From Acidimicrobiales bacterium (lineage in GTDB: Bacteria > Actinomycetota > Acidimicrobiia > Acidimicrobiales > JAUJNH01), in contig JBBSHM010000001.1 of the NCBI GenBank assembly GCA_038253125.1, forward strand, positions 28,094-92,093: 64,000 bases of DNA. Direction: 5' to 3'. The translations under genes and the position numbers were made by a program. Position 1 is the stretch's first letter; every line of letters begins with the position of its first letter. Shown here in pieces: positions 44 to 34,130 of the stretch. A model generated the notes under the pieces. That model made no database searches. It worked only from the letters and a program-made list of their open reading frames with translations, and was not told the origin of the DNA.

Positions 44-244
44 ATGAGCGTCCTCGCCTACGTTCTCGGCGCCCTCCTCCTGTCGTTCGTCGTCGTCGCC
101 GTCATCTGGCTCCGGGAGCAGAAGCCGTCTTCGCTCGAGGACGGCATTGACGAGTTCAACCGCGAGCTCGAAGCGCTGGCGCCGGACTGGCAGCCGCCGG
201 TGCGCAAGGGCGCCCGTCCGAGGAACGGGGCCCCCCCTGGCTAG
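44..244 (+). CDS. small membrane-anchored hypothetical protein (66 aa)
   Basis: ORF with one N-terminal hydrophobic helix (VLAYVLGALLLSFVVVAVIWL). Third codon positions are almost all G/C in this frame through 147-240, a better signal than the overlapping mreB-frame extension. The TAG stop at 242-244 overlaps the likely mreB start. Confidence 0.45.
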   Translation: MSVLAYVLGALLLSFVVVAVIWLREQKPSSLEDGIDEFNRELEALAPDWQPPVRKGARPRNGAPPG

Positions 245-1247
245 GGACCTGGCCATCGACCTCGGCACTGCCAACACCCTGGTCTACGCCAAGGGTTCGG
301 GCATCGTCCTCAACGAGCCGACGGTGATCGCCCTCAACGAGAAGACCAGGGACGTCCTGGCCATGGGCCACGAGGCGTGGCAGATGATCGGCCGCACACC
401 CGGCTACATCGTGGCCATGCGGCCGCTGCGGGGCGGGGCCATAACCGACTTCGAGATCACCCAGCGCATGATCTCGCTGCTGCTGCGCCGAGCCGGTGTG
501 TCACGCTTCAACCGGCCCCGGGTGCTCATATGCGTGCCCTCGGCCATCACCGAGGTCGAGCGCCGGGCGGTCATAGAGGCCAGCCGCCGGGCCGGCGCCG
601 CCGACAGCCAGCTCATCGAGCAGCCCATGGCCGCCGCCATCGGCGCCGGCCTGCCCATCCACGAGCCGCTCGGGAACATGGTGGTCGACATCGGCGGCGG
701 CACCACCGAGACCGCCGTCATCTCACTCGGCGGCATCGTCCACCTCGAAGCCATCCGGGTGGGCAGCTTCGACGTCGACGCCGCCATACAGACGTACGTG
801 CGCCGCGAGTACGGGATAGCCATCGGCGAGCGGACGGCCGAGGAGATCAAGGTGGCGATCGGCTCGGCCGCCCCGACCGACGACGAGGTGAAGGCCGAGG
901 TGCGGGGCCGCGACCTCATGAGCGGCCTGCCGAAGACCGTCATCCTCTCGCCGGAGGAGGTGCGCGACGCCATCGAGGAGCAGGTCGGCGCCATCGTCGC
1001 CTCGGTCCTGCGCTGCCTCGGCCACGCCCCGCCCGAGCTGGCCCAGGACCTGATCACCCAGGGCATCCACCTGGTCGGGGGCGGCGGCATGCTCCGGGGG
1101 CTGGACGTGCGGCTGGCGGCTGAGACAGGCGTGCCCGTCCACCTGGTCGACGCCCCGCTCGAATGCGTCTGCCTGGGCGCCGGCAAGTGCATCGAGGCCT
1201 ACGAGACCCTGAAGGTCATGTTCATGGGGCCGAGCTCGAAGTACTAG
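237..1247 (+). CDS. mreB: rod-shape protein MreB (actin-like ATPase)
   Basis: Lies in ORF-track 147..1247. MreB motifs present: DLAIDLGTANTLVY, NEPTVIAL, MVVDIGGGTTE, HLVGGGGMLRGL. The conserved N-terminus begins about 246, so the start is placed at CTG 237; ATG 147 is the alternative. Confidence 0.9.
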   Translation: MARDLAIDLGTANTLVYAKGSGIVLNEPTVIALNEKTRDVLAMGHEAWQMIGRTPGYIVAMRPLRGGAITDFEITQRMISLLLRRAGVSRFNRPRVLICVPSAITEVERRAVIEASRRAGAADSQLIEQPMAAAIGAGLPIHEPLGNMVVDIGGGTTETAVISLGGIVHLEAIRVGSFDVDAAIQTYVRREYGIAIGERTAEEIKVAIGSAAPTDDEVKAEVRGRDLMSGLPKTVILSPEEVRDAIEEQVGAIVASVLRCLGHAPPELAQDLITQGIHLVGGGGMLRGLDVRLAAETGVPVHLVDAPLECVCLGAGKCIEAYETLKVMFMGPSSKY

Positions 1248-1259: not shown

Positions 1260-1943
1260 TCAGCCCAGGAGGTCCTCGGCGGCCTGGCGGACCTGCCAGT
1301 CCCGATCCTCGAGGGCCCGGTGGAGGGCCTGGTCGACCAGGGTGCCCTCGAAGGGGGCGAGGGCCAGCACGGCCCGGCGCCTCACGGCCGGCTTGTCCAA
1401 CGTGGCGGCCAGCACGGCGGCCAGGCCCCGCTCGTCACCGATGGCCCCGAGAGCGGCCACCGCAGCCTCACGCACGAGCGGGTCGGCGTGGCCTCCGGCC
1501 GTGCTCACCAGCGCCTCGACCGCCTCGGGATCCTCACGCTCGCCCAGGGTCCAGCACGCCGCCTCGGCCACCAGCGGCTCGCCGTCGCCGAGCAGGGCGC
1601 CGATCTGAGAGACCGTGACCGCGGCCGTCGTCGCCGCCAGCTCGACTGCCCGGCGCCGGACCGTGGGCGCCAGGTCGGCCAGCGCCGCCGTCACGGCCGC
1701 TCCTGCACCCTCGTCATCGATGCGAACGAGGGCGCCGAGCGCTGCAACCCGCACCTCGGGATGGGGAGACCGGGCCAGCGAGCGGGCGGCGCCGGCATCG
1801 GAGGTGTGGCCGGCGAGGGCGGCGGCCCGAAGCGCTTCGATCTCCGAGGCCTCCACCTCTCCCGGAGGGTACCGAAGGTGGCTGCCGCGGCGCTTCTTCG
1901 GCCCGACCCTCTGCCAGGATGGCCCTGTGGCCGCCCCCGGCAT
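1260..1943 (-). CDS. HEAT-repeat protein
   Basis: Part of ORF 1260..2174. Repeated helical units: HPEVRVAALGAL, APTVRRRAVELA, DPLVREAAVAALGAIG, KPAVRRRAVLALA, DWQVRQAAEDLL. Start set at ATG 1943 because the upstream part overlaps the divergent sortase gene; the start is uncertain. Confidence 0.6.
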   Translation of the reverse strand: MPGAATGPSWQRVGPKKRRGSHLRYPPGEVEASEIEALRAAALAGHTSDAGAARSLARSPHPEVRVAALGALVRIDDEGAGAAVTAALADLAPTVRRRAVELAATTAAVTVSQIGALLGDGEPLVAEAACWTLGEREDPEAVEALVSTAGGHADPLVREAAVAALGAIGDERGLAAVLAATLDKPAVRRRAVLALAPFEGTLVDQALHRALEDRDWQVRQAAEDLLG

Positions 1944-1947
1944 CCAG

Positions 1948-2652
1948 GTGCCCCGGAGACCCAGCCGGGGTCGGTTTCGGTGGCTGAGCTGGGTAGCGCT
2001 GACGACGGCCGTGGCCGTGGCCGGGCTGTCCAGCCTCGACGCCGTCGGCCGCCCGGCCGCCCCGCCGATGCTGCGAGCCTCGTTCGTCGGGAGCCGGGCC
2101 TCAACCGAGGTTCGGCTGGCACCGGTGACCACGGCGGTGGCGGCGAGCACGCCGGATCCGATGGGGGCGGACACGGCGGCGCCCCCGACCGCGGCCGCCC
2201 CGCGCCCGGGCCCCGTCGACGTGCCAGCCGACCCCTACGCCGCCGAGAACGTCGTCGAGATCGGCAGCCTCGAGATAGCCAAGCTCGGGGTCCGGCAGCG
2301 GCTGATGCAGGGGGTCACCCTGCGGAACATCGATCTCGGCCCCAGCCAGTGGCCCGGCACCGCCCTGCCAGGTCAGCCCGGGAACATGGTGGTGGCCGGC
2401 CACCGCGTCACCCACTCGCGGCCCTTCCGGAACATCGACCAGCTGGTCCCGGGGGACCAGGTCGTGGTCACCGCCCAGGGAGTGCAGGCCACCTACCGGG
2501 TGGCGTCATCGTTCGTTGTCACCCCCGACCGGACCGACATAGCCGACCCGACCCCGACGCCGACCCTGACCCTGTTCGCCTGCCACCCACCGGGTTCAGC
2601 CCGCCAGCGCTACGTGGTGAAGGCCGACCTCGTCGCAACCTCGGCCCTCTGA
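1948..2652 (+). CDS. sortase (class E-like)
   Basis: GTG 1948 is followed by a basic stretch and a TM helix (RFRWLSWVALTTAVAVAGL). Sortase catalytic signatures: VVAGHRVTH (His), TLTLFACHPPGS (TLxTC Cys), RYVVKADL (Arg). The 5' part of ORF 1615..2652 is treated as non-coding. Confidence 0.75.
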   Translation: MPRRPSRGRFRWLSWVALTTAVAVAGLSSLDAVGRPAAPPMLRASFVGSRASTEVRLAPVTTAVAASTPDPMGADTAAPPTAAAPRPGPVDVPADPYAAENVVEIGSLEIAKLGVRQRLMQGVTLRNIDLGPSQWPGTALPGQPGNMVVAGHRVTHSRPFRNIDQLVPGDQVVVTAQGVQATYRVASSFVVTPDRTDIADPTPTPTLTLFACHPPGSARQRYVVKADLVATSAL

Positions 2653-3818: not shown

Positions 3819-5780
3819 GTGCCCGCGACGAGGTGGACGGACGAGGTGACCACGGTCGACGACAGCGTACAGCCAGCATCAGCGCCCCTTGCTGATCCCG
3901 ACCGCTCCGGCGCGCTCCGCACCGCGGCAGGCTCGGTCGCCTGGACGGCAATCGGGCCGGCGCGGGCACCTGCCGCCCTTCTCCTCCCGGCCACCGACGA
4001 CCTCCTCGGCTGGCCGAGCCTGTTCGTGCGGCAGCTGGTGAGCAACGGGCTCCAGGTCGTCGCCTTCTCGCCGCCAGTCGGGATGGCCGACGACGTGGGG
4101 GCCGTGGCCGATGCGGCCTCCGCCGTACTGCTCGCAGCAGGGGTCACCCGCGCCCACGTCGTCGCCGCCTCCCAGGGCGGGATCGTCGCCCAGGTGCTCG
4201 CCGTGGCCCACCCGGACCGGGTGGCGTCACTGACTCTGCTGATGACCCGCCGCTCCACCACAGCCCACCTCGAGGTGCCGCCCGGGCTGCTCCCGCTGCT
4301 GGCACCTGCGAAGGGTTCGGGGACACCGCGGGACCGGGCCACCGAGGTCGCCTCCGCGCTGTCACGAGGCGTGGTGGCCGACCGCTCCGCTCACGATGCC
4401 CTCGCCGCCGCCGCCCAGGCGTCCGGTGCCGATCCCGTCAGCTCGCTGCTCTGCTTCGCGTTGGGCGAGGACGCCACCCTGCCTCCCGCCCCGGAGTCGA
4501 CACCCGCCACAGTGGTCCACGGCGACGACGATCCGCTCGTGCCGCTCGAGGCGGGGCGCAGCCTGGCCGCCGCCCTCGGTGCCGAGCTGGTCGTGTTGGC
4601 CGCCGGCCATGACCTGCCCTGGGGCCATGAGGCCGAGGTGGCCCGGCTGGTGGAGGGAGCGGCCGCCCCCACCGTCATCGGTCGGCGGAGGCGTTCCCAC
4701 CTCCCGGCGCTCACCTGGCGGGGCCGGCGCCCCGGCAGGCTCGTCACAGCCGGCGCCGTCCTGTTCGTCCTGCTGATGGTGGCGATCATCGCCGGCTCGA
4801 CCATCGGCGTCCCGTACTACGCCATCCGGCCGGGCACGGCGCGGCGGACCAACGACCTGGTCGAGGTGCCGAAGGACCGCCGCTTCCCCCCGAAGGGCCA
4901 GCTGCTGTTCGTCACCGTCAGTGTCGGCCGCCTGACGGCGCTGGGATGGCTGATCGCCAGCCGGGACCACGATGTCGATGTGGTTCCTGAGAGCGACATC
5001 CTCGGCACCACCCCGAAGGGGCAGTACCGCGAACAGGTCACCCAGGAGATGGTCGACGCCAAGCAGGCCGCGGTCGTGGTCGCGCTCAGCCGCCTGTGCG
5101 ATCCGGTCTCGGAGACGGGGACCGGGGCCCGGATCGACACCGTCGCCGACGGGTCGCCGGCCGCCATGGCCGGCATCGCCCGAGGTGACACGGTCACCGC
5201 GGTCGGTGGAGCACCGGTGACCACGGCCGACCAGGCGCTCGTCAACCTGCGCCAGAGGCAGCCGGGGGAGAACGTCGAGCTGACCGTGATCGGTCCGCAG
5301 ACGGGCGTCGCGCCCCGCGCCACCACCGTCGTCCTGGGTCGCCGCCCGGACGACCCGAGCCGCTCGTTCCTCGGGGTCACCCTGCGCACCCGTCAGCAGG
5401 ACTTCTCGCTGCCCTTCGACGTCGCCATCGACAGCGGAAAGGTGGGCGGGCCCTCGGCCGGGCTCGAGTTCGCCCTCTCCATTGTCGACCAGCTGACGGC
5501 GGGCGAGCTGACGGGCGGCGGCAAGGTCGCCGTCACCGGCACCATCGAGCTGGACGGGACGGTCGGTCCCGTCGGCGGGGTACCCCAGAAGGCGGTGACC
5601 GTGAGGCGGGCGGGGGCGAAGCTCTTCCTCGTCCCGAAGGAGCAGGTGGCCGAGGCCCGCAGCAAGGCTGGCAGAGGTGTCGAGGTCGTCGGGGTGGCCA
5701 CGCTCAACGAGGCGATTCAGGCCCTGGCCGCCCACGGGGGGGACATCTCGGGCATCCCGGGCTCCTGCCCCGGTCGCTGA
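3819..5780 (+). CDS. alpha/beta-hydrolase domain fused to TM-PDZ-Lon-like (S16) protease (Rv3194c/YlbL-like C-terminal part)
   Basis: Single 653-aa ORF. N-terminal part has VVAASQGGIVAQ (nucleophile elbow), HGDDDPLVP and AAGHDLPWGH. Then comes a TM helix (LVTAGAVLFVLLMVAIIAGS), a PDZ-like segment (DGSPAAMAGIARGDTVTAVGG) and Lon_C-like motifs (GKVGGPSAGLEFALSIVD, KAVTVRRAGAKLFLVP). Confidence 0.7.
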   Translation: MPATRWTDEVTTVDDSVQPASAPLADPDRSGALRTAAGSVAWTAIGPARAPAALLLPATDDLLGWPSLFVRQLVSNGLQVVAFSPPVGMADDVGAVADAASAVLLAAGVTRAHVVAASQGGIVAQVLAVAHPDRVASLTLLMTRRSTTAHLEVPPGLLPLLAPAKGSGTPRDRATEVASALSRGVVADRSAHDALAAAAQASGADPVSSLLCFALGEDATLPPAPESTPATVVHGDDDPLVPLEAGRSLAAALGAELVVLAAGHDLPWGHEAEVARLVEGAAAPTVIGRRRRSHLPALTWRGRRPGRLVTAGAVLFVLLMVAIIAGSTIGVPYYAIRPGTARRTNDLVEVPKDRRFPPKGQLLFVTVSVGRLTALGWLIASRDHDVDVVPESDILGTTPKGQYREQVTQEMVDAKQAAVVVALSRLCDPVSETGTGARIDTVADGSPAAMAGIARGDTVTAVGGAPVTTADQALVNLRQRQPGENVELTVIGPQTGVAPRATTVVLGRRPDDPSRSFLGVTLRTRQQDFSLPFDVAIDSGKVGGPSAGLEFALSIVDQLTAGELTGGGKVAVTGTIELDGTVGPVGGVPQKAVTVRRAGAKLFLVPKEQVAEARSKAGRGVEVVGVATLNEAIQALAAHGGDISGIPGSCPGR

Positions 5781-5833
5781 GGCGGCGACCGGTACGTTTT
5801 GCGACAACCTCACCAACTGACCCCAGAGCGGCC

Positions 5834-8362
5834 ATGTCCCCTGCTGCTGCGCAGCTCCAGTTCGGGGCCGAGTTCCTCGGCTTCCTCGCCGCCATCGCAG
5901 GCGTCGCCCTCTCGCTGCTGCGAGCAGCCCCTCGCCGTCCGACCCCCGCCGTAGCCGGCGCGCTCGGGCTGCTGGCCGTGGTCGCCTTTGTGGCCGGGTC
6001 CCGGCTGGTCGATGACCGCTCCGACGTTAGGGTGGCCGGGCTCCGGGTGCTCGGGGCCACGGCCCTGGCTGTGGCCGTCGTGCTCTGGGACGTCGAGCAG
6101 CGCACCAAGGTGCTGCTCCTGGCCGGCGCCGTGGCCACAGCCACGGCGGTGCCGTTGATCTCCTTCGGCCTCTCGACCCCGGCCGACGTCGCCGTCGCCG
6201 CCGGCAGCCTGCTGATCGGCGGGGCCGTGCTGGACGTGGCCCGCCGCTCCGTCGCCTCGCGCATCGCGGTGTCGGGCGCCGCCTCGCTGCTCGTGATCGT
6301 GCTCGTCCTGTCGGTCGCCCTGTCGGCGGTGATCGACTCGAACCTCCAGCGCGAGGCGGTCAAGCGCCTCGACGACCGGGCCACCGCCGAGGCCGGTGCG
6401 CTGGCGGAGGACCTGGGCGTCCTGCTGCGCCTCGACACCCTGGCCAACGACAGGCTGGCGGTCACCGCCGCCGCCAACCGGGGTCAGCCCGTCGATCGGG
6501 TCCGCGACGCGATCGCCCGGGCGCTCGACCTCCTGGCAGCCCGCTCGCTCGGCCGGGAGGTCTACCTCTACGTCGGCGCCGACCCGTCCTCGACGGTGCT
6601 CAGCCAGGAGGCGACCAAGGTGCTCGACCAGGCGGGGCTGGTCGCCCTGGCCGGCGACGAGGTGGTGCAGCGGGCCAGGTGTCCGTTCGCCCCCGGCCTC
6701 GACGTGGTCATCCTGGACGAGCGGGCCTACGGGGTGGCGGTCAGCCCGGTGTGCGAGGACAACACGACCCTCGTCGGGCGCCTCGTCGCCCTGGCCCCGC
6801 TAGAGAGCCGCCTCGGCGGTGCCATCCCCAAAAGCGACACCACCTCGCTGGCCCTGTTCGGGCCGAAGGGCCCGGTTGCCCAGGCGGGCCGACAGCCCGA
6901 CCCGGCGGCCTCCCGCCTGCTGGCCTCGATGGTCCTGGCCGACAGCAAGGCGCGTTCGAGCGTCGTCGGGGGACGGTTCGTCAGCGCCGCACCGTTCAGC
7001 CTCGTCGTCAACAAGCCCGCTTCCCTGGCTCTGGTCGCATCGTCGCCCACGGCGAGCGTCGCCAACACCCGTGATGGCCTGTTCCGGGTGCTCTTCGTCA
7101 TCGCGCTGCTGGGGACGCTCGTGGCCCTGCTGCTGGCCGCCGTGGTGGGCGAGCGCATAGGGGCCCGGCTGCGCAGCCTGACCCAGGCGGCCGAGGCTCT
7201 CGGCCGGGGTGACCCCGGCGTCCGCACCGGCCTCGACGGCGATGACGAGGTGGGCGCCCTAAGCGTCACCTTCGACAACATGGCCTCGGCCATCGAGGAG
7301 AAGACCGAGGCCGAGGGACGGCTTCGGGGGCGCCTCGAAGCGGTCGTGGGCGAGATGGGCGAGGCGCTGGTGGCGACCGACGCGCAGGCCCGCATCACCG
7401 ACTTCAACCGTTCGGCCGAGGACCTGGTCGGGGTGTCGGCGCGCATCGCCCTCGGCCGCCAGGTGAACGAGGTCGTCACCTTGGCCGCCGACGATGGCGC
7501 CGACCTGGCCAGCCGCCTGAAGCAGCCGCCCCGGACCCAGTGGTCGACCAGCGCCAGCCTCACCCCCCTCGATGGCCCCGTGGTTCCCGTGGCGGTCTCC
7601 GGTGCCCCGCTGCGGGCACCCGACGGAGGTCCGGCGGGCGGGGTGTTCGTGCTCCGCGACCTGAGAGGCGAGAGGGAGGTCGAGCGCATGAAGACCGAGT
7701 TCCTGTCCCGCATCGGCCATGAGCTGCGCACCCCCCTCACCGGCGTTCTCGGTTACTCAGAGATGCTGTTGCGCCGCCAGTGGCCGGCTGACCGGTCCCG
7801 CCAGATGCTCGAGGAGGTCAACAGCTCGGGCCACCGCCTCGAGCGGATCATCCAGCTGCTCGAGTTCTTCGCCGCCGCCGCCGCCGGTCGCACCCTCCTG
7901 CGCCTCGAGGCGGTGGAGCTGCGGCCCATCGTCGACGAGGTGATGGAGGCGTGGGGGCCACGTGTCTCGTCGCCGCTCACCCTCACCCGCAAGGTGGCCC
8001 GTGGCCTGCCGGTGGTGCTGGGCGATCGGCGGTGGCTGCGCCTGGCGCTGAGCGAGCTGGTCGACAACGCCATCAAGTTCTCGCCGGCGGGCGGCAGGAT
8101 CGTCATCAGCGCCGTCCGCGCCCCCGACGGCCGGGTCAACCTCGCCGTCACCGACGGCGGTGTCGGCATGGCGCCCGACGAGGTCGAGCGGGCCTTCACC
8201 GACTTCGAGCAGGGCGATACGTCCGATACGCGGCGCTACGGGGGCCTTGGCCTCGGTCTTCCACTTGTCCTTCGCGTCGTTGAGGGCCACGGTGGTGAGG
8301 TGCGCTGTGCGACCACTCCTGGACGGGGCACCCGGCTGTCGCTGCTGCTCCCCTCTCGATGA
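5834..8362 (+). CDS. membrane sensor histidine kinase (multi-TM, HAMP, PAS-like, HisKA, HATPase)
   Basis: H-box EFLSRIGHELRTPLTGVLGYSEML; N-box LSELVDNAIKFSP; G-boxes VTDGGVGM and YGGLGLGLPLV; HAMP-like DDEVGALSVTFDNMASAIEE; several N-terminal TM helices. Confidence 0.9.
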   Translation: MSPAAAQLQFGAEFLGFLAAIAGVALSLLRAAPRRPTPAVAGALGLLAVVAFVAGSRLVDDRSDVRVAGLRVLGATALAVAVVLWDVEQRTKVLLLAGAVATATAVPLISFGLSTPADVAVAAGSLLIGGAVLDVARRSVASRIAVSGAASLLVIVLVLSVALSAVIDSNLQREAVKRLDDRATAEAGALAEDLGVLLRLDTLANDRLAVTAAANRGQPVDRVRDAIARALDLLAARSLGREVYLYVGADPSSTVLSQEATKVLDQAGLVALAGDEVVQRARCPFAPGLDVVILDERAYGVAVSPVCEDNTTLVGRLVALAPLESRLGGAIPKSDTTSLALFGPKGPVAQAGRQPDPAASRLLASMVLADSKARSSVVGGRFVSAAPFSLVVNKPASLALVASSPTASVANTRDGLFRVLFVIALLGTLVALLLAAVVGERIGARLRSLTQAAEALGRGDPGVRTGLDGDDEVGALSVTFDNMASAIEEKTEAEGRLRGRLEAVVGEMGEALVATDAQARITDFNRSAEDLVGVSARIALGRQVNEVVTLAADDGADLASRLKQPPRTQWSTSASLTPLDGPVVPVAVSGAPLRAPDGGPAGGVFVLRDLRGEREVERMKTEFLSRIGHELRTPLTGVLGYSEMLLRRQWPADRSRQMLEEVNSSGHRLERIIQLLEFFAAAAAGRTLLRLEAVELRPIVDEVMEAWGPRVSSPLTLTRKVARGLPVVLGDRRWLRLALSELVDNAIKFSPAGGRIVISAVRAPDGRVNLAVTDGGVGMAPDEVERAFTDFEQGDTSDTRRYGGLGLGLPLVLRVVEGHGGEVRCATTPGRGTRLSLLLPSR

Positions 8363-9582
8363 GCGCCTCCGTCGGCCGCCCGTTCGCCGCGGTCCTGCTC
8401 ACATCGGTCCTGGCGGTGGCGCTACTCGGCTGCAGCCGGAGCAGCAGGGTGGCGGGCGAGGGGCGCCTGGACCCGGGCGGAAGGGTCCTGCTCACCGAGC
8501 GGGGCGGCAGGCCTGAGACGGTGGCCCGGTCACGGGACCTGGTGAACGGCGACAGCATCGAGGTGGTCGAGGGCGCGGCCAAGGTCGTCCTCCCGGGCGG
8601 GCAGGTCCTGGAGCTGCAGCCCCGGTCGGTCCTGCTGCTCGACCGGGGGCCCGAGCTGCGCAGCGGCGATCTCCTTGTCACCAGGCCCCGCACCGCCGGC
8701 CCGGCGGCCGGCACCGTGCGGGCGGCGGGCAGTGACGTCGGCGTCACCGGGGCGGCCCGCATCACCGTCACCCCGTCTCTGGGCGTGGTCACCTACCGGG
8801 GGACGACCTCGTTACGCAGTGGCGGACGGACGCTGGAGGTGCCGGCGCTGCGGGCGGCCGACGTCCCGCTCATCGGCCTGCTCCCGGGGCGCCCGGGCCC
8901 GCTCGTGATCGACCGGGCCGACCCCTGGGTGACCCGCTTCCTGGGTGACGAGGCCGAGAACGAGGTGGCGCTCGAGAACCGGTCCCGCGGCTTCACCGAC
9001 CAGGTGAAGGCCATCGACGCCGCGTCCCCGGCCTTCTACCGCAGCCTGCTCCCCGGCCTGGCTGGTCAGGCCGACTTCCAGCAGGCTGCGGTGGACCGGT
9101 TCGGCCGGTCCCAGCCGGACGCCTCCGTGCGGGCCGGCGAGGTGCTCCTCGGATCGGCCACTGCCCTGCAGGGGCGCCGTGGCACCTTCGCCGGCCGGCT
9201 GGTCGACACCGCGGCGTTCCGGGCTGAGGGCGCGTCGTGGGCCGTTGTCGCCGCCGACCAGGACGTCGGAACCGAGGCGCTGCTGAGACTGGTCGACGGG
9301 GCTGTCAACGTGGCTCCGCTCGAGCTTGCCGCGCCCGCTCCGAAGGTGCCCGAGCCTCCGCCCCCCGCACCCCCGTCGACCCGAAGCGCGGCAACGCCCA
9401 GCGCGCCCGTCCCCCGGGTGACGTCGACCACCAGCACCACCCGTCCCGGGCCGCCGGTGAACACCAGGCCCAGCCGGCCGCCGCCCACCTCGCCTCCGCC
9501 CCTGATCACCCTCGACCCGCTCGTCGAAGGCACCGTCGACCCGGTCGTGGCCCTGCTCACCGACCTTCTCGGGGGCCGTTAG
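8359..9582 (+). CDS. putative lipoprotein with FecR-like domain and Pro/Thr-rich tail
   Basis: ATGA start/stop overlap with the kinase gene. Signal peptide with lipobox (AVALLGC). FecR-like pattern GDSIEVVEGAAKVVLPGGQVLELQPRSVLLL. Pro/Ser/Thr-rich C-terminus. Confidence 0.55.
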   Translation: MSASVGRPFAAVLLTSVLAVALLGCSRSSRVAGEGRLDPGGRVLLTERGGRPETVARSRDLVNGDSIEVVEGAAKVVLPGGQVLELQPRSVLLLDRGPELRSGDLLVTRPRTAGPAAGTVRAAGSDVGVTGAARITVTPSLGVVTYRGTTSLRSGGRTLEVPALRAADVPLIGLLPGRPGPLVIDRADPWVTRFLGDEAENEVALENRSRGFTDQVKAIDAASPAFYRSLLPGLAGQADFQQAAVDRFGRSQPDASVRAGEVLLGSATALQGRRGTFAGRLVDTAAFRAEGASWAVVAADQDVGTEALLRLVDGAVNVAPLELAAPAPKVPEPPPPAPPSTRSAATPSAPVPRVTSTTSTTRPGPPVNTRPSRPPPTSPPPLITLDPLVEGTVDPVVALLTDLLGGR

Positions 9583-9640: not shown

Positions 9641-11893
9641 ATGGCCGACATGCGTGCGGGGCCACGACCTGACGAGGTTGCGGCCAGGACCTTCCCGACA
9701 TCGTTCCGAGGCTTCGACACCACTGCGGTGCGCGACTACCTGGCCGAGGTGGCCTCGGCCCTGGCGGCGGCCACCGCCCGGGAGGAGGCCCTGCGTGACG
9801 ACCTGACCCTCACCCGGGCGAGCCTGGCCAGCCCCGACCTCGACGAGTCGGCTCTCCTGAGCGCCCTCGGCGACGAGGCGGGGCGGGTGCTGCGGTCGGC
9901 CAAGGAGGCGGCAGCCGACATCCGTGGCAAGGCCGACGCCAACGCCGCGGTGGCTCTGGACCAGGCCCACACCGAGGCCGAGCGGGTCAGGGCCGAGGCG
10001 CAGCTGGCGGCCGACCGGCTGCTGCGCGACGCCGAGGGTGTGCTGGCCATCCGGAACGACGAGGCTGACGACTCCACCGCCCGGTTGTACGGCGCCGCCG
10101 AGGAAGAGGCGGCTCGGCTCAGGGAGGCCGGCTTGGTGGAGGCCCGTGCCATGGTCGCCGAGGCGCGGGCGGTTCGCGAGCGGATGCTGGGCGACCTGAA
10201 GCGGCGGGTGCAACGGGGCGAGGCGACGGTCGAGGTGCTCCGCGTCGGGCGCGAGCGCCTGCTTGAGGCCTTTGGCGTGGTGAAGGACCGTCTGGATGAC
10301 GCCTCGCACGCGCTGGCCACCGCCGAGGCCCGGGCCCGCAAGGAGGCCGAGGAGGAGGCCGAGCGGGTGGGCTCCGAGGCGGCCTCGGTGGTCGACCGCC
10401 TGATGCTGATGGAGCCCACGATGCCCGAGCCGGCGGGTACTCCTGACGAAGAGGAGCAGACCGCGGAGCCGGCCGCCGAGGTCGACACCGGTGAGCCGTC
10501 GGGCGAGGTGGCCGAGGTCGTTCCCATCGGAGGCGTCGGTGTCGCCGTCGGCGTGATCGAGGTCGAGGACGACGAGCATGCGCCGACACCGGTGTTCGAC
10601 AGCCCGGCGGCGGCGCCGAGCACCGGCGAGGTGCCAGCGATCGCCGCCACCGGCACCGACTCGAGCGGGGTGGGTCGCCGGCGGCGCCGCATGCTGCGCC
10701 TGGCCGATGAGCCGGCGGTGAGGGCCGAGGAGCAGCGCCTGACCCAGCTGCGCTACCTGCACCGGCCCCGCACCGGTGGCGAGGCCGAGGTCCACCTGCC
10801 CGAGGACGGGATGGTGGTTGTCGAGCCCCCCACCGCCGGTGAGGGCGTGCGGCTGCTGCGCCACGAGGAGGGCCGGCCCGAAGCCCGGGCACCTCAGCCG
10901 GCCGGCACCCCAAGCGTCTCGGAACCGTCGGCCGACGCGCCGACGGCACCGCCTCAAGCTCGCCGAGCTGATCCGGCCGAGTCGCCGTCGCCGTCGCCGT
11001 CGCTGCCGCCGCCGCACGTGGACGGGCCGGTCGACTCGTCGGCCGCACCCCAGCAGGGCCGTGTAGGCGCGCCGCACGACTCCCCGGCCGCACCGCCCCG
11101 GGCCCAGGCGGCCGTCGGGCCCCGGTCCGACGCCGCCGACCTATTCGCCCGGCTGCGGGCGGAGCGCTCGGGCGGGGCCGCCGCAACGCCGACGCAGGTC
11201 GCCGCTGCAGCCCCGGTAGAGGACGACGAGATGCTCCTCCAGGCCCGGGACACCGCGGTGCTGCCGGTTGAGCACCTCCTGGCCAAGAAGGTCAAGCGGG
11301 TGCTCCAGGACCACCAGAACACCGTCCTCGACCGGCTCCGGGCCAAGCGGCCGCCCACCGCTCTCGAGCTCCTGGGCGAGGTCGAGGACCTGCTCGGCCC
11401 GCTGAGCGCGGCGGCCGAGCCGCTGCTGGGCGATGCGGCCAAGGCCGGTGCGGCCTGGGCCGGCTTCCCCGACAGCCCGGTCCCGAGCGCGGACCTGGCC
11501 ACCGACATCGCCGCCAACGTGGTGAAGGACCTCCGCCCCCGCCTCGAGCTGGCCTACTCGGTCGTGGACCCGACCCGCCGGGCCGACCGCGTGAACGTGG
11601 CCTTCCGGGAGTGGCGGGGCGAGCGGGTGGGCCGGCTCGTCGCCGATGCCGCTCACGCCGCCTTCGCCCGCGGTCACTTCGTGGCCACCCCGGCCCGCAC
11701 GCCGCTACGCTGGGTCGCCGACGACGGCGAGCGGCCCTGTGCCGAGTGCGAGGACAACGAGCTGGCCGGGTCCACGCCGAAGGGCACCCCGTTCCCCACC
11801 GGTCACCGGCACCCGCCGGTTCACAGCGGCTGCCGCTGCCTCGTCGTCGGCCTTCCCGCGGGGTCGCCGGCACCGACACCGGACCTCGGGTGA
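9641..11893 (+). CDS. DivIVA-domain protein with long disordered middle and MuF-like Cys/His C-terminus
   Basis: N-terminal DivIVA signature FPTSFRGFDTTAVRDYLAEV followed by coiled-coil. Acidic/Pro-rich centre. C-terminus RWVADDGERPCAECEDNELAGSTPKGTPFPTGHRHPPVHSGCRCLVV resembles the end of the phage Mu F / SPP1 gp7 head-morphogenesis domain (recalled from memory). Confidence 0.65.
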   Translation: MADMRAGPRPDEVAARTFPTSFRGFDTTAVRDYLAEVASALAAATAREEALRDDLTLTRASLASPDLDESALLSALGDEAGRVLRSAKEAAADIRGKADANAAVALDQAHTEAERVRAEAQLAADRLLRDAEGVLAIRNDEADDSTARLYGAAEEEAARLREAGLVEARAMVAEARAVRERMLGDLKRRVQRGEATVEVLRVGRERLLEAFGVVKDRLDDASHALATAEARARKEAEEEAERVGSEAASVVDRLMLMEPTMPEPAGTPDEEEQTAEPAAEVDTGEPSGEVAEVVPIGGVGVAVGVIEVEDDEHAPTPVFDSPAAAPSTGEVPAIAATGTDSSGVGRRRRRMLRLADEPAVRAEEQRLTQLRYLHRPRTGGEAEVHLPEDGMVVVEPPTAGEGVRLLRHEEGRPEARAPQPAGTPSVSEPSADAPTAPPQARRADPAESPSPSPSLPPPHVDGPVDSSAAPQQGRVGAPHDSPAAPPRAQAAVGPRSDAADLFARLRAERSGGAAATPTQVAAAAPVEDDEMLLQARDTAVLPVEHLLAKKVKRVLQDHQNTVLDRLRAKRPPTALELLGEVEDLLGPLSAAAEPLLGDAAKAGAAWAGFPDSPVPSADLATDIAANVVKDLRPRLELAYSVVDPTRRADRVNVAFREWRGERVGRLVADAAHAAFARGHFVATPARTPLRWVADDGERPCAECEDNELAGSTPKGTPFPTGHRHPPVHSGCRCLVVGLPAGSPAPTPDLG

Positions 11894-11914: not shown

Positions 11915-14900
11915 ATGAACATCCCAGCCGACCTGCCCCGGCGTGGGAGTTCGCGCCCCGCCGGGAGCCGCCGCCGCAACGTGCTGCTGGCGGCGGCCGG
12001 GGCGGTGGTGTTCCTGCTGCTGTTCTCGAGCGGGATCGCCGGCTTCTACACCGACTACCTGTGGTTCGACGACCTCGGCGTGGCCCAGGTGTTCACAGGG
12101 GTGCTCAAGGCGCGCCTCGTCCTCGTCGTCGTCTTCCTGGCCGCCGCCTACCTGCTGGTGTGGGGCAACCTCCGCATCGCCGAGCGGCTGAGCCCGATGG
12201 GGCCCAGGCGGGGTCCCGAGGACGACGTGGTGCAGCGCTACCGCGACGCCATCGGCAGCCACGGCGGCAAGGTTCGCCTGGCGATCGCCGCCACCCTCGC
12301 CCTGCTCCTGGCCGGTGGGGTGGGCAGCCGGTGGGAGCAGTTCCTGCTGTTCCGCAACCAGGTTGCGTTCGGGACGAAGGACCCGCAGTTCCACCGCGAC
12401 ATCAGCTTCTACGTCTTCGACCTGCCGTTCCGCACCTTCGTCGTCAACTGGCTGCTGTTCGCCCTGATCCTCACCACCCTGGTCACCACCGCCTTCCACT
12501 ACCTGAACGGCGGGATCCGCCTGCAGGTGGCCCAGCAGCGGGGGGCGAGCCCGCAGGTAAAGGCCCACATCTCGGTGCTGCTGGCCGGCATCGCCTTTGT
12601 CAAGGCCTACAGCTACTGGCTGGAGCGCTTCGAGCTCGTGTACTCGCGCCGCGGCTTCGCCCAGGGCGCCTTCTACACCGACGTGAAGGCGAGGCTGCCA
12701 GCCCTCGGCCTCCTCACGCTCATCTCGGTGGCGGCGGGCATCCTGCTGCTGGCCAACATCTACCGGCGCGGCTTCGCCCTGCCGGCGGTGAGCACCGGCC
12801 TGTGGCTGTTCGTCACGGTGCTGGTGGGCTCGGCCTATCCGGCCATCATCCAGCAGTTCCGGGTGAAGCCGGCCGAGAACCGTCTCGAGACGCCCTACAT
12901 CCAGCGGAACATCGACGCCACCCGGGCCGCGTTCGGTCTCAACGTCGAGGTGAGGGACTTCGACTACACCGAGGCGCCCGGGGCCGTAACCGGGGCGTCG
13001 CTGCAGGACGACGCCGCCACCGTCCGCAACATCCGGCTGTGGGACCCGAACGAGAAGCTGGCCCGCGTCACCTGGCAGCAGCAGCAGAGCTTCCGGCCCT
13101 ACTACCAGGTGCTCGACGTGGACGTGGACCGCTACCCGCTCAAGGGCCAGCCCACCCAGGTCGTCGTTGCCACCCGCGAGCTCAAGCCCTCGGACCTGCC
13201 CTCGTCCAACTGGGTCAACCAGCACCTGGCCTACACCCACGGCTACGGCGCCATCATCGCTCCCGCCAACGCCGCCACCCCCGACGGTTTCCCCGCCTAC
13301 TCGCTGAAGGACCTCCCGCCCACGGGCGAGCCACAGCTGGAACAGCCCCGCATCTACGTCGGTGAGCAGGGCGACCAGAGCGCCGCCAACGACTACGCCA
13401 TCGTGCGCACCAAGCAGCCGGAGATCGACTTCCAGCGCCCGACCGGGGGCGACGAGACCTCAAGCTACGCCGGCACGACGGGGGTGAAGCTGGACTCCGC
13501 CGCTCGTCGCCTGGCCTTCGCCGTTCGCTACCGCGAGGTCAACGTCATCACCTCGCCGCTCATCACCAGTGAGAGCAAGGTGCTGTACGTGAGGGGCATC
13601 AAGGAGCGGGTCCGAAAGGTCGCCCCCTTCCTCACCCTCGACAACGACCCCTACGCGGTGGTCACCCCCGACAAGCGGATCGTCTGGATCCTCGATGCCT
13701 ACACCACTTCCAGCCGCTACCCCTACAGCCAGAGCGTCGGCGCCATCGGCAACCTCACCGGGGTCAACTACGCCAGGAACTCGGTGAAGGTCGCCGTTGA
13801 CGCCTATGACGGCACCGTCACCCTTTACGCCGTCGATGGCAAGGACCCAGTCCTGAAGGCCTACTCCAAGACCTTCCCGGGGCTGTTCACCGACCCGACC
13901 AAGCTGACTGGTGACCAGGCCACCAGGTACAGCGACCTGGAGACGCACTTCCGCTACCCGGAGGACCTCTTCGCCCTCCAGGCCAACCTGCTCGGGCGCT
14001 ACCACATCACCAACCCGAACGAGTTCTTCTCGGCCACCGACCGGTGGAACGTGAGCCCCGACCCCGGTGTGCAGGCCACGAGGCCGACGGCGGTTCCCGT
14101 CGCCCCCTCGGCCACGGGAACGCCGCGGCCCGGAGGGCTCGGACTGACCAACCTGTCGTCGGGTGAGGACGGCCGGATCCCGCCCACCTACCAGCTGCAA
14201 CGCTTCCCGGGCGAGGACCAGTTGCGGTTCGGCGTCACCGTGCCCTACGTGCCGTATGACCGCGGCGACCTGAGGTTGCAGCTGACGGCCTTCCTCACGG
14301 CCCGGTCGGATCCGGGTGAGTACGGCAAGCTGGTCCTGTACAGGACGCCACCGGGCCAGCAGATCAACGGGCCGTCGCTGGTCGCCTCGAACATCCTGGC
14401 CGATAGCACCATCTCCCAGCAGATATCGCTGCTGAACCAGGAAGGGAGCTCTGTCCTGTTCGGCAACATCCTGCTCGTGCCGATCGAGAAGTCGATCATC
14501 TACGTGCGCCCGCTGTATGTGGAGGCCAACACCAACCCGGTGCCGAAGCTGGTGAAGGTGATCGCCGTCTACGGCAACAGGGCGGTCATGAGGGACACGC
14601 TGGCGGCGGCGCTGACCGAGCTGTTCCCAGGCACTGCGCCACCGACGCTCGAGCAGGGCGGCGGCGGCACCACAACGCCTACGACGGGGGCGGGTCCCCC
14701 GGCGCCGCCGGTCCCCGGCGGAAACGTCGCCAGTCTCATCGGCCGGGCCGATACCGCCGTCGCCGCCGCCCAGGCCGCTCTCCAGAAGGGCGACCTGGCC
14801 GAGTACCAGCGCAGGGTCAACGAGGCCGCCGATCTGGTCCGCCAGGCGGGCCAGCTCTCCGGCGCACCCCCGCCGACAGGCGGGACGGCGTCACCCGGGC

Positions 14901-14989
14901 CCGTCGCCGGCGCTCCGCCCGGCGCGGCGGTGACCACCACGACGTCCACCCCGGCTCCCGCCCCGACGACAACGACCGCCTCCGGCTGA
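11915..14989 (+). CDS. UPF0182 family large membrane protein (Rv3193c-like)
   Basis: 1024-aa ORF. N-terminal multi-TM region begins ...GIAGFYTDYLWFDDLGV..., typical of UPF0182. Gly/Pro/Thr-rich tail. Confidence 0.85.
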   Translation: MNIPADLPRRGSSRPAGSRRRNVLLAAAGAVVFLLLFSSGIAGFYTDYLWFDDLGVAQVFTGVLKARLVLVVVFLAAAYLLVWGNLRIAERLSPMGPRRGPEDDVVQRYRDAIGSHGGKVRLAIAATLALLLAGGVGSRWEQFLLFRNQVAFGTKDPQFHRDISFYVFDLPFRTFVVNWLLFALILTTLVTTAFHYLNGGIRLQVAQQRGASPQVKAHISVLLAGIAFVKAYSYWLERFELVYSRRGFAQGAFYTDVKARLPALGLLTLISVAAGILLLANIYRRGFALPAVSTGLWLFVTVLVGSAYPAIIQQFRVKPAENRLETPYIQRNIDATRAAFGLNVEVRDFDYTEAPGAVTGASLQDDAATVRNIRLWDPNEKLARVTWQQQQSFRPYYQVLDVDVDRYPLKGQPTQVVVATRELKPSDLPSSNWVNQHLAYTHGYGAIIAPANAATPDGFPAYSLKDLPPTGEPQLEQPRIYVGEQGDQSAANDYAIVRTKQPEIDFQRPTGGDETSSYAGTTGVKLDSAARRLAFAVRYREVNVITSPLITSESKVLYVRGIKERVRKVAPFLTLDNDPYAVVTPDKRIVWILDAYTTSSRYPYSQSVGAIGNLTGVNYARNSVKVAVDAYDGTVTLYAVDGKDPVLKAYSKTFPGLFTDPTKLTGDQATRYSDLETHFRYPEDLFALQANLLGRYHITNPNEFFSATDRWNVSPDPGVQATRPTAVPVAPSATGTPRPGGLGLTNLSSGEDGRIPPTYQLQRFPGEDQLRFGVTVPYVPYDRGDLRLQLTAFLTARSDPGEYGKLVLYRTPPGQQINGPSLVASNILADSTISQQISLLNQEGSSVLFGNILLVPIEKSIIYVRPLYVEANTNPVPKLVKVIAVYGNRAVMRDTLAAALTELFPGTAPPTLEQGGGGTTTPTTGAGPPAPPVPGGNVASLIGRADTAVAAAQAALQKGDLAEYQRRVNEAADLVRQAGQLSGAPPPTGGTASPGPVAGAPPGAAVTTTTSTPAPAPTTTTASG

Positions 14990-15531: not shown

Positions 15532-15595
15532 GCACCTCTAACCTACCGAGCCCGTCTGGACAGTTGGTGGACCCGTGCTATCGTCGTCCCCCTCG

Positions 15596-15672
<77 letters not shown>

Positions 15673-15686
15673 ACAAAAGTGCAGGT

Positions 15687-34028: not shown

Positions 34029-34130
34029 CTACTTGCCGGCGGCCCGGCGCTGCCAGCGCGTCTTCTTCAGCATCTTCTTGTGCTTCTTCTTCCGCATGCG
34101 TTTGCGGCGTTTCTTGATCAGCGAACCCAT
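34029..34130 (-). CDS. 33-aa basic protein, bS22-type small ribosomal protein (Rv0500B-like)
   Basis: [33 protein letters not shown] is almost identical in pattern to mycobacterial bS22 ([33 protein letters not shown], recalled). It forms only the last 33 codons of ORF-track 34029..34727. Confidence 0.8.
   Translation of the reverse strand: [33 protein letters not shown]

Follow-up and report, generated by a model that had tools for sequence, protein, structure and literature searches.

We describe a bacterial protein in which a DivIVA lipid-binding head is joined to a homologue of MuF, a phage head-morphogenesis protein. The protein has four parts: a DivIVA head with a coiled coil of ~180 aa, a tether of ~250 aa, a short VDxLFARLRA motif and a MuF domain of ~215 aa (Table 1). 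Its gene is a lineage-wide chromosomal core gene of the Acidimicrobiia. The best explanation of the whole, in which we place about even confidence, is that the protein carries a domesticated MuF docking module on a DivIVA membrane scaffold and probably acts with a UPF0182 membrane protein. A literature search for DivIVA and MuF together gave no relevant paper, and we found no earlier description of the fusion.

Table 1. Features of the fusion gene and its neighbours. Positions are those of the window, i.e. the whole 64-kb stretch of DNA that was analysed; residue numbers are those of the fusion protein.
Feature	Position	Strand	Basis
DivIVA-MuF-like fusion gene, whole	9641..11893	+	ORF list; identical independent gene call; GC3 0.90; 202 homologues
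DivIVA N-terminal lipid-binding head, aa 8-62, SFRG loop (F22, R23, G24)	9662..9826	+	PF05103, TIGR03544, family profile vs solved heads
Long coiled-coil helix, aa 69-247, predicted DivIVA-type oligomerisation region	9845..10381	+	AF2 full-length model; family alignment
Variable acidic Pro-rich disordered tether, aa 249-495	10385..11125	+	pLDDT <50; low occupancy and identity in family alignment
Conserved short helix/motif V-D-x-L-F-A-R-L-R-A, aa 497-512	11129..11176	+	Alignment; AF2 model
MuF / SPP1-gp7-like globular domain, aa 529-740	11225..11860	+	AF2, Foldseek, PHROG, hhalign, reciprocal HMMs
Cys/His knuckle C700-x2-C703 ... F-P-T-G ... P-P-x-H728-x-G-C731-R-C733, putative Zn site	11738..11839	+	Alignment, hhalign
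UPF0182 membrane protein gene, 21 bp downstream of fusion	11915..14989	+	PF03699, 837 bits
PDZ + Lon_C (S16-type) protease gene	3819..5780	+	Pfam PDZ, Lon_C
PAS-HAMP histidine kinase	5834-8362	+	Pfam
Pro-rich lipoprotein-like ORF, 407 aa	8359-9582	+	Between histidine kinase and fusion gene
mreB, outer part of neighbourhood	147-1247	+	PF06723, 426 bits
HEAT-repeat gene, outer part of neighbourhood	1260-2174	-	HEAT_2, 80.6 bits

The gene is real. The reading frame given in a preliminary description of this DNA matches the window's ORF list exactly, with an ATG start, and an independent gene call in another assembly yields the identical 750-aa product. Its GC3 is that of the neighbouring genes (0.90 vs 0.90-0.93), and 202 homologues of the protein were recovered. 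The N-terminus had been called canonical DivIVA, and both PF05103 (45.1 bits vs a cut-off of 28, aa 10-131) and TIGR03544 (26.7 vs 22) bear this out. A single-sequence phmmer search of the N-terminus against the PDB gave no match, and the family profile is needed to see the relationship to solved structures: it matches the lipid-binding head of Bacillus subtilis DivIVA (2wuj) over all 57 residues with an E-value of 7e-10, and also 2wuk and 7o39 (DivIVA) and the GpsB, 6lfa and Wag31 heads. In B. subtilis DivIVA, F17 and R18 act in membrane binding, and the SFRG loop of the fusion protein aligns with the B. subtilis SFRGY. Across a 44-sequence alignment, F18, G24, V30 and L34 of the head are invariant, with R23 retained in 41 sequences and F22 in 38. 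After the head comes the coiled-coil region, the predicted site of oligomerisation, which the full-length AF2 model renders as one helix at a pLDDT of about 85-94 and which contains a conserved block (aa 165-240, column identity 0.55-0.82).

Is this protein simply the Wag31 of these bacteria? By its sequence, we class it as a paralogous DivIVA-domain protein and not as the Wag31 orthologue, because the score against the Wag31 equivalog model NF050102 (13.5 bits) is far from the cut-off of 260. Like the scaffold-adaptors DivIVA, Wag31, GpsB and SepIVA, the fusion protein has a head with an F-R-G loop and a coiled coil, and it follows their modular plan of head, coiled coil and an end for partner binding; unlike them, it adds a disordered tether and a phage-derived globular domain, and we know of no characterised DivIVA-family member with either addition. 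The tether is acidic (net charge -21 over aa 246-525). It had been put at ~350 disordered residues but is shorter (~250 aa), since the DivIVA coiled coil extends to aa ~247. Beyond it lies the strongly conserved V-D-x-L-F-A-R-L-R-A motif (aa 498-507), in which F502 is invariant and L501, A503, R504, R506 and A507 are each shared by 39 or more of the 44 sequences (about 90% or higher); AF2 predicts a helix over residues 497-512, with a pLDDT of 81 for residues 501-510. With a hydrophobic moment of 0.09, LFARLRA finds no support as a classical amphipathic helix that targets the membrane.

The C-terminal ~215 aa are homologous to the MuF / SPP1 gp7 head-morphogenesis domain of phages, because PHROG, hhalign, reciprocal HMM searches and Foldseek all point to one family. 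The best single-sequence match of the fusion protein is phrog_2662, a portal-MuF family (E 2e-8, 215 aa); the matched stretch of that profile is its MuF part, and SPP1 gp7 matches the same region. When the cellular family was aligned by hhalign with a PF04233-positive phage family, an alignment of 23 phage MuF sequences, the result was 97.5% with an E-value of 5e-12 over 94 columns, and the invariant columns of the two families coincide: the Y and R of YRE, a W, the Cys pair of CxxC, FP.G, PP.H and C.C. In the reciprocal search, the family HMM matches 60 of 98 phage MuFs, the best at 45.5 bits. The AF2 model of the domain (pLDDT 90.8, pTM 0.85) is a five-helix bundle with a small beta/Cys-His knuckle, and a Foldseek search of BFVD with this model, a check that the preliminary description had proposed, returned 39 viral matches at E<=1e-3; those with names are essentially all MuF, head-morphogenesis or minor-capsid proteins, or toxin and portal fusions thereof. 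That description had assigned ~110 aa to the MuF-like part; the assignment to MuF stands, and the unit is in fact ~215 aa (aa ~526-740). Sequence-profile homology spans the C-terminal ~95-170 residues, the N-terminal helices being linked by the PHROG profile and the fold only. The nearest confirmed MuFs are of the CxxC type, and their genes closely follow Mu-type portal genes on viral contigs of ~60-63% GC (for example, L005:5110-6204).

Might the resemblance instead be a convergent zinc ribbon placed on an unrelated helical bundle, with fold matches that reflect generic helical likeness? Curated thresholds lend this reading some substance. PF04233, another check proposed earlier, does not match the full-length protein; on the isolated C-terminus it reaches 16.6 bits, the cut-off being 29.6, and TIGR01641 reaches 12.8 against 39.65. 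The fold comparison is also one of predicted with predicted structures only, and its BFVD matches (250-280 aligned columns) have moderate TM-scores of 0.3-0.67 (TMq up to 0.67) and high rmsd. Furthermore, the R..A-R-T-E motif is absent from the family consensus, the phage RRRAEMIARTE aligning with RVGRLVADAAH of the fusion protein. We nevertheless regard convergence as highly improbable: four independent methods agree on one family, the invariant columns of both sides coincide, a phage-encoded portal-MuF fusion likewise falls below the PF04233 cut-off (26.9 bits), and a Foldseek search of the PDB with the domain model found no comparable helical-bundle match (best E 0.07). Neither sequence profile nor fold found a solved MuF-like structure in the PDB. 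Two further comparisons carry little weight: the family profile, compared by hhalign with SPP1 gp7 as a lone sequence, produced no match, an uninformative result, and tblastn against annotated phages aligned the last ~50 aa only (E>=0.01), too weak a result to stand alone. Sub-threshold matches to FliH, DUF7097 and NinG were taken as coiled-coil or Cys-motif noise.

The C-terminal string quoted in the preliminary description and the Cys/His pattern claimed for it (C..C...PP.H..CRC) are found at aa 700-733. More fully, the signature PP-x-H-x-x-C-R-C preceded by C..C or D.RTR..H is present as C700..C703, PPVH728 and C731-R-C733; the D.RTR..H variant occurs in gp7 and gpF, and C..C in the nearest phage subfamily, with whose PC..C...FP.G..PPAHPHCRC the knuckle aligns column for column. 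Of 120 homologues, 106 end in this pattern at their very C-terminus; of the other 14, 12 retain the PPAH.GCRC-type half and two are truncated. At the level of sequence, this recurrence is far above chance. C731, C733, P719, G721 and P726 are invariant, and C700, H728 and C703 are retained in 42, 43 and 39 of 44 sequences, respectively. The likeliest role of the knuckle (Cys3-His/Cys4) is to bind zinc and so steady the docking surface.

How does this domain differ from its phage relatives? It shares with phage MuF and SPP1 gp7 (PF04233, TIGR01641) a predicted fold over about 215 aa, homology of the C-terminal ~95-170 residues and the common motif W...PC..C...FP.G..PP.H..CRC; unlike them, it falls below the curated cut-offs, lacks R..ARTE and sits at the C-terminus of a DivIVA scaffold, in a cellular core gene away from any portal. 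Portal-MuF fusions (phrog_2662, e.g. the 'portal protein' of Brevundimonas phage Strzyga) are likewise larger oligomerising proteins that end in MuF, but they are virion proteins, and their N-terminal partner is a portal (PF04860) in place of DivIVA. The cellular branch has, in addition to losing the ARTE motif, turned acidic: the domain has a median pI of 4.9 family-wide and a net charge of -2 to -20, whereas those phage MuF domains that were checked have a basic pI (8.6-10.2).

This acidity bears on one possible function. In other bacteria, DivIVA proteins serve as anchors for chromosome-segregation factors, and a MuF-like domain that had retained DNA binding could anchor the chromosome to the DivIVA-marked membrane in the manner of RacA-DivIVA. 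SPP1 gp7 is described as DNA-binding (Stiege 2003, as cited in PMC5576092 and PMC6316719). We find such a nucleoid tether improbable because the pI of the domain is acidic; the flexible tether is acidic too, and the neighbourhood holds no par, smc or ori genes.

The fusion is encoded in at least 568 species genomes, nearly all of them Acidimicrobiia; phylogenetic distribution was a further check that the preliminary description had proposed. Its 1,257 clusters (50% identity, E<=1e-30) carry the MuF-like domain at the C-terminus in every case, and the reading frame is unbroken in 66 of 71 loci. The gene belongs to a conserved block, mreB / HEAT / S16-PDZ protease / fusion / UPF0182. UPF0182 lies directly downstream in 79 of 80 related loci (median gap about 24 bp). 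In most of the loci whose flank is long enough, the protease gene precedes the fusion gene on the same strand; among related loci, 51 have MreB and 59 have HEAT. The two genes that separate protease and fusion here are insertions found in a subset of genomes (about 15 of 80 loci have the histidine kinase, about 5 of 80 the 407-aa ORF).

The fusion gene is cellular and not prophage-borne, as its cellular neighbours, a GC3 equal to theirs and the lack of a PADLOC match (PADLOC-DB 2.0, E<=1, with the fusion protein, the 407-aa ORF or UPF0182 as query) indicate. The alternative of a prophage remnant or a MuF-type polymorphic toxin lying beside cellular genes has in its favour that muf genes occur in 25% of the bacterial genomes of Jamet's dataset and are strongly associated there with phages and prophages (PMC5576092). 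Phage MuF genes, however, typically stand in the head module directly downstream of the portal, whereas the fusion gene adjoins S16-PDZ protease, histidine kinase, UPF0182 and mreB genes, and no portal, terminase or capsid gene was found among the ORFs scanned in the window, in agreement with the earlier remark that no other phage genes are nearby. MuF polymorphic toxins and polyvalent proteins (Jamet 2017, PMC5576092; Iyer 2017, PMC5512222) do use MuF as a modular delivery or docking unit, but theirs is N-terminal to C-terminal effectors and is phage-encoded and injected; the fusion protein has no toxin or other effector domain, is cellular and carries MuF at its C-terminus. With the same synteny in 80 of 80 loci examined, the prophage or toxin alternative is effectively refuted, and the earlier view of a domesticated module is upheld by a class-wide core gene in conserved housekeeping synteny.

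A cellular gene could still serve against phages; a membrane-tethered MuF mimic might capture phage portals and poison head assembly. Portal binding is the only established activity of MuF, and the nearest relatives of the domain are MuFs of high-GC phage contigs and actinophages, both of which suit such a decoy. We think it very unlikely all the same, given that the gene is universal and syntenic in a housekeeping block, unlike a patchy defence-island gene, that the domain is under strong purifying conservation with no arms-race diversification, and that PADLOC gave no match. A marginal similarity of the helical part to ZorA of Zorya (E about 1e-3) was rejected, having neither Foldseek-PDB support nor a PADLOC match.

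What, then, might the domain dock onto? We envisage a single capture of a phage MuF domain early in the evolution of the Acidimicrobiia, followed by exaptation. The DivIVA part would oligomerise and, like DivIVA, Wag31 and GpsB, attach to curved membrane at the poles or septum; this localisation is drawn solely from the behaviour of the DivIVA family elsewhere, and the presence of MreB suggests that these bacteria may not grow from their poles. On its long flexible tether, the MuF-like domain would serve as a docking module, its surface steadied by a zinc-binding Cys/His knuckle, that recruits or organises an oligomeric envelope partner. In phages, strong binding of gp7 to the portal is what directs a few copies of it into the procapsid (PMC6316719; PMC5576092), and tight docking on the portal oligomer is the sole established MuF activity. 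The likeliest partner in the cell would be UPF0182, whose gene is probably co-transcribed with the fusion gene, no terminator-like site having been found in the gap between them. That the domain docks on UPF0182 as gp7 does on the portal is an analogy; no similarity was detected between UPF0182 and portal proteins, and gene adjacency falls short of proving physical interaction. UPF0182 (PF03699) is unrelated in sequence to the fusion protein and is its constant genetic partner; a preprint describes it as universal in Actinobacteria and proposes that it regulates the FtsH-dependent quality control of membrane proteins (bioRxiv 10.1101/2025.11.14.688347), whereas we found the DivIVA-MuF fusion almost only in Acidimicrobiia. 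If the two proteins do act together, the outcome would be to couple FtsH-dependent quality control to sites of division or growth.

The UPF0182 proteins of Acidimicrobiia have an N-terminal tail of ~24 aa with a median net charge of +7; its complementarity to the acidic domain and tether is only a lead. Basic N-terminal tails are expected of any membrane protein under the positive-inside rule. In other Actinobacteria, the protease and UPF0182 genes may be adjacent with no fusion gene between them (putatively Rv3194c and Rv3193c in Mycobacterium tuberculosis); a homologue search with UPF0182 returned Acidimicrobiia only, the literature search found no paper naming both genes, and we do not count this adjacency as evidence.

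The same architecture and origin could also serve another partner, be it MreB, the HEAT protein, the S16-PDZ protease, FtsH or a cell-wall enzyme, or the domain could work as a zinc or redox switch, with the UPF0182 linkage reflecting a shared pathway only. The genes for mreB, HEAT and protease are conserved neighbours as well, conserved Cys clusters can be redox-active, and the many polar residues that are invariant beyond the knuckle (R536, K552, D557, Q559, N560, R567 and R656) suggest a surface for a specific ligand or partner. Against this, the tightest and most constant linkage is that to UPF0182, a terminator-like hairpin (5770-5792) follows the protease gene, and the HEAT gene lies on the opposite strand. 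We consider a different partner rather unlikely. Docking on UPF0182 remains our preferred reading, and its most specific form, in which MuF was captured at the root of the Acidimicrobiia, became an essential-type part of the envelope machinery, docks oligomeric UPF0182 and thereby positions FtsH-linked quality control, is tentative and, taken as a whole, rather doubtful.

These findings have several implications. To our knowledge, all contexts described so far for MuF are viral, prophage or toxin-delivery ones, and here a MuF homologue is fixed as a single-copy core gene across one bacterial class, fused to DivIVA. This is a clear instance of a protein from the virion interior that was exapted long ago for cellular use. 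The domain is otherwise known almost solely from the inside of virus heads, and this old viral part appears to have been recruited to machinery with which the cell builds its own envelope or shape. About 35% of tailed phages have MuF, which places it among the most widespread phage proteins (PMC5576092), and the fusion offers a tractable non-viral system for asking what its fold binds. More than 1,200 protein clusters labelled just 'DivIVA domain-containing protein' hold this unannotated ~215-aa domain, which merits its own family model. For the Acidimicrobiia, whose cell biology is almost unstudied, the work identifies a conserved mreB-to-UPF0182 envelope gene block and gives UPF0182, whose link to FtsH regulation is only now emerging, a lineage-specific partner. 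If the most specific form of our preferred reading is true, the MuF fold would have its first cellular function, one that is neither viral nor that of a toxin, and it would provide an experimental handle on two long-standing families of 'unknown function', MuF and UPF0182.

The reading frame of the fusion protein is a native coding gene, as it begins with ATG, yields the identical 750-aa product in an independent gene call from another public assembly, and has a GC3 of 0.90, like that of neighbouring genes (0.90–0.93), in a window of ~72% GC; the C-terminal string quoted in the preliminary description is found in this product. The N-terminus had been described as DivIVA, and this assignment holds: PF05103 (DivIVA) passes its cut-off of 28 with 45.1 bits over residues 10–131, TIGR03544 scores 26.7 against 22, and a profile of 44 full-length homologues matches the B. 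subtilis DivIVA lipid-binding head (2wuj, E 7e-10) over the entire crystal construct, as well as the heads of GpsB and Wag31. The SFRG loop of the fusion protein aligns with B. subtilis SFRGY, and across the 44 sequences F18, G24, V30 and L34 of the head are invariant, with R23 kept in 41 and F22 in 38. Canonical Wag31 was rejected as an identity (equivalog model, 13.5 vs 260). Judged by sequence, the fusion protein is a paralogue with a DivIVA domain. In the DivIVA family the head attaches to membrane and the coiled coil oligomerises; DivIVA, Wag31 and GpsB are adaptors that place partner proteins.

The C-terminus had been likened to the phage MuF/SPP1 gp7 head-morphogenesis domain, and the literal Pfam check stays below the curated threshold: PF04233 has no match on the full-length protein, even at E ≤ 10, and on the isolated C-terminus reaches 16.6 bits against 29.6, over profile positions 61–111 only. 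TIGR01641 gives 12.8 bits against 39.65, and tblastn against annotated phages aligns only the last ~50 aa (E ≥ 0.01), these weak matches being 'MuF-like minor capsid' proteins and portal–MuF fusions. Among PHROGs, phrog_2662 is matched (E 2e-8) over ~215 aa, at profile positions 460–706 of 717. Since this family is labelled 'portal protein', one member was checked, a protein of Brevundimonas phage Strzyga (L090:1329-3653, annotated 'portal protein'; 355.7 bits on phrog_2662), which has Phage_portal at residues 110–448 and a PF04233 region at 662–768. Because of this layout, and because SPP1 gp7 matches phrog_2662 at positions 591–712, we take the match to be to the MuF part of a portal–MuF fusion family. 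Strzyga's MuF region itself scores 26.9 bits on PF04233, under the 29.6 gathering cut-off, so divergent MuF regions escape the Pfam threshold even where the phage context is clear. On these scores PF04233 evidently calls too few of the divergent MuF domains, and a fused MuF can be concealed by the label 'portal protein' in PHROG and GenBank.

Comparison of whole families is more sensitive here. One alignment comprised C-terminal domains from 32 diverse members of the cellular family, i.e. the homologues of the fusion protein, and the other 23 phage proteins, whose queries from the nearest viral contigs, L005 and L008, pass PF04233 in our own scan (41.9 and 39.7 bits) and sit directly after a Mu-type portal gene; the other rows carry precomputed PF04233 annotation, except P0195 and P0213. 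Between the two alignments hhalign gives 97.5% probability (E 5e-12, 94 columns), pairing residues 646–740 of the window protein with residues 232–339 of the phage protein, its PF04233 region, and the invariant columns coincide (Y/R, W, C..C, FP.G, PP.H, C.C). Searched with the cellular-family HMM, 60 of 98 phage MuFs are recovered at E ≤ 1e-3 (Z = 1e5), with alignments of up to ~170 profile positions and a best reciprocal match of 45.5 bits to a protein that JGI names 'SPP1 gp7 family'; in the reverse direction, the phage HMM recovers 63 of the 120 cellular members.

From the cellular alignment, AlphaFold2 predicts a bundle of five helices and, after it, a small beta/Cys-His knuckle (mean pLDDT 90.8, pTM 0.85). 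The structural match that the preliminary description had named as a check was found, predicted structure against predicted structure, when Foldseek returned 39 BFVD matches at E ≤ 1e-3 (250–280 columns, TMq up to 0.67), of which essentially all those named are 'phage head morphogenesis domain' or 'minor capsid' proteins, MuF-toxin fusions (Zeta toxin, ADP-ribosyltransferase, CDI-like) or portal–MuF fusions. Against the PDB library the best E was 0.07, and the search brought up no solved MuF structure; the viral matches are thus not generic helical-bundle noise. Because PHROGs, profile–profile comparison, reciprocal HMMs and structure all point to MuF, we assign the C-terminal ~215 aa (~526–740) to the MuF superfamily as a divergent member. 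The proposed homology stands and the proposed length does not, the domain being about twice as long. Convergence, in which the likeness would arise without true MuF homology, is disfavoured by the concordance of these four methods. Of the knuckle residues, C731 and C733 never vary, and C700, H728 and C703 are kept in 42, 43 and 39 of 44 sequences; from this conservation the putative metal ligand set is likely Cys3-His, C703 being an alternative. A relation of the helical part to Zorya ZorA (residues 206–291 of 8qyk and 8qyy against residues 592–674, window ~11414–11662; E 1e-3 to 4e-3) was rejected, as neither Foldseek-PDB nor PADLOC supports it, and the similarity is probably compositional.

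Features of the fusion gene and its upstream neighbours
Feature	Window position	Strand	Residues	Details
mreB	147–1247	+		PF06723, 426 bits
HEAT-repeat gene, divergent	1260–2174	-		
S16/PDZ protease ORF	3819–5780		653 aa	PDZ 433–491, Lon_C 543–612
Pro/Thr/Ser-rich ORF	8359–9582		407 aa	lipoprotein-type N-terminus (…VALLGCS…)
Fusion gene	9641–11893	+	750 aa	ATG start
DivIVA head			8–62	full-length alignment and model
Single long helix			69–247	pLDDT ~90 (full-length model)
Acidic, Pro-rich, gap-rich region			249–495	pLDDT <50
Isolated conserved helix, V-D-x-L-F-A-R-L-R-A	11129–11176		497–512	pLDDT 81
MuF-like domain			529–740	pLDDT ~95 (full-length model)

The boundaries between the parts come from the full-length family alignment and the full-length structure model, which agree. 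Residues 246–525 carry a net charge of -21. The isolated helix lies ~20 aa N-terminal to the MuF-like domain within otherwise unconserved disorder; its F502 is invariant, and the neighbours are each kept in no fewer than 39 of the 44 sequences (~90% or above). Given its low hydrophobic moment (0.09), it looks like a partner-binding linear motif rather than a membrane helix. A second helix is predicted in the disordered tether at residues 358–371 (RAEEQRLTQLRYLH; pLDDT 77 for 361–370), in the stretch around residues ~354–371 (window 10700–10753), with only moderate occupancy across the family.

The fusion is widespread. The 202 homologues found by protein search come from Acidimicrobiia, Acidimicrobiales or Iamia; all are titled some form of 'DivIVA domain-containing protein', and none has a precomputed Pfam domain at the C-terminus. 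An exhaustive search of 1.84 billion cluster representatives gave 1,257 matches at E ≤ 1e-30, rising to 2,116 at E ≤ 1e-10; in each of the 150 matches listed, the MuF-like domain ends at the C-terminus. Among GTDB species representatives at least 568 genomes have the fusion protein, and the best 80 of these are nearly all labelled Acidimicrobiales, Acidimicrobiaceae, Iamiaceae or Ilumatobacteraceae, the taxonomy being that of MAG record titles.

Over the 80 loci from the best of these at least 568 genomes, order and strand are constant: S16/PDZ protease, DivIVA-N part, MuF-C part and UPF0182, a membrane protein gene; in 66 of 71 loci a single uninterrupted frame runs through both halves of the fusion. 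The fusion gene and UPF0182 lie a median of ~24 bp apart (IQR 9–66; 21 bp in the window), and no terminator-like hairpin was found between them, the sole one of the region being 3' of the protease gene. Further upstream, mreB (51 of 80 related Acidimicrobiia loci) and HEAT (59 of 80) form the outer part of a block mreB/HEAT/S16-PDZ protease/DivIVA–MuF/UPF0182; neither mreC nor mreD adjoins mreB in the window. In a subset of loci, including the window, a PAS-HAMP histidine kinase and the Pro-rich lipoprotein-like ORF are inserted between protease and fusion gene; this ORF has no Pfam or PADLOC match, and its start overlaps the kinase stop (8359–8362). The protease ORF has an N-terminal alpha/beta-hydrolase match (residues 96–146), and since tblastn matches to it in other loci span only ~330 aa, its true start may be internal, or it may carry an extra fused domain in this genome.

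The remaining window genes are housekeeping (MetRS, Mfd, GlmU-like, photolyase, GH15, HAD, ClC, three tRNAs); as the preliminary description had it, no other phage genes are nearby, none for portal, terminase, capsid or integrase being seen among the window ORFs scanned, and PADLOC has no match to the fusion protein, the 407-aa ORF or UPF0182. Given synteny and surroundings of this kind, the fusion gene is a vertically inherited core gene of a cell-shape/envelope neighbourhood. The conserved synteny in 80 loci excludes a prophage remnant and bears out the domestication proposed earlier; we have little doubt about the identity and domestication of the MuF domain. The same context rules out a MuF toxin and, without PADLOC matches, a recognised defence gene. 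An anti-phage decoy that captures portals is likewise disfavoured, the gene being universal, syntenic and slowly evolving and having no PADLOC match. tRNA genes are common integration sites; tRNA-Met (15597–15673) lies ~600 bp 3' of UPF0182, behind the only sigma-70-like promoter match of the 12-kb region (15557–15584), and nothing phage-like adjoins it. ARAGORN calls tRNA-Gln (34181–34256) and tRNA-Leu (57982–58057); a gathering-threshold Rfam scan gives only tRNA-Met at 15597. The tRNA-Gln call falls within the longest-ORF call of the GlmU-like gene (34033–35403), which therefore probably starts downstream.

The cellular domain differs from its phage relatives in charge. Every one of the 32 members sampled is acidic (net charge -2 to -20, with a median pI of 4.9), whereas gp7, Mu gpF and the nearest phage protein reach pI 10.15, 8.61 and 10.19 over their PF04233 regions. 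The phage 'R..ARTE' helix motif is not retained, and where gp7 and gpF have D.RTR..H, PC..C stands in the cellular family and in the phage proteins nearest to it. An actinophage source fits, because the nearest viral loci have 59–63% GC and the weak GenBank phage matches are mainly to Arthrobacter phages. Directly after the MuF genes of L005 and L008 lie large ORFs (L005:6204-9185, 993 aa; L008:6303-8648, 781 aa) with repeated 'FEPGLRPVLKHGSHNQ…' segments, which look like the polyvalent or injected-effector type.

What might such a domain do in a cell? SPP1 gp7 binds the portal oligomer strongly and is thereby targeted into the procapsid, a few copies at a time of assembly; this portal interaction is the one well-established MuF activity, and gp7 binds DNA as well (PMC6316719; PMC5576092). 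A gp7-like tether to the nucleoid would draw on the DNA binding and is disfavoured by the acidic charge. According to a 2026 preprint (bioRxiv 10.1101/2025.11.14.688347), UPF0182 proteins are conserved in all Actinobacteria, are predicted to be tetramers with a periplasmic dome above 7 TM helices, and are phenotypically linked to FtsH and YccA, i.e. membrane-protein quality control. Beyond the modular architecture, homologies, conservation and operon-like coupling to UPF0182, which are observed, we propose that the exapted MuF domain, held on a long flexible tether, would serve for protein docking, that DivIVA would anchor it at the membrane, and that the anchored module would organise an oligomeric envelope partner, most probably UPF0182. 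The N-terminal tail of Acidimicrobiia UPF0182 (P0359–P0478; median ~24 aa, median net charge +7) is Arg-rich before the first TM helix, e.g. MRxPxDLPRRRR..R.GR (window 11915–11990, residues 1–25), and its charge is complementary to the acidic MuF-like domain and tether; either the DivIVA head or the acidic domain might dock onto this tail. The positive-inside rule predicts basic tails anyway, so the charge is only a lead. A membrane-tethered docking adaptor in envelope organisation or morphogenesis is, in our estimate, slightly favoured; UPF0182 as the direct partner of the MuF-like domain is a tentative and rather doubtful suggestion.

The DivIVA and MuF families are each already known. Full-text literature searches found no paper linking the two, public annotations of the sampled homologues end at 'DivIVA domain-containing protein', and the major MuF surveys (including PMC5576092) treat phage, prophage, toxin and polyvalent-protein contexts only. 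What is new is a cellular, class-wide, DivIVA-fused and acidified branch of MuF, together with its gene neighbourhood.
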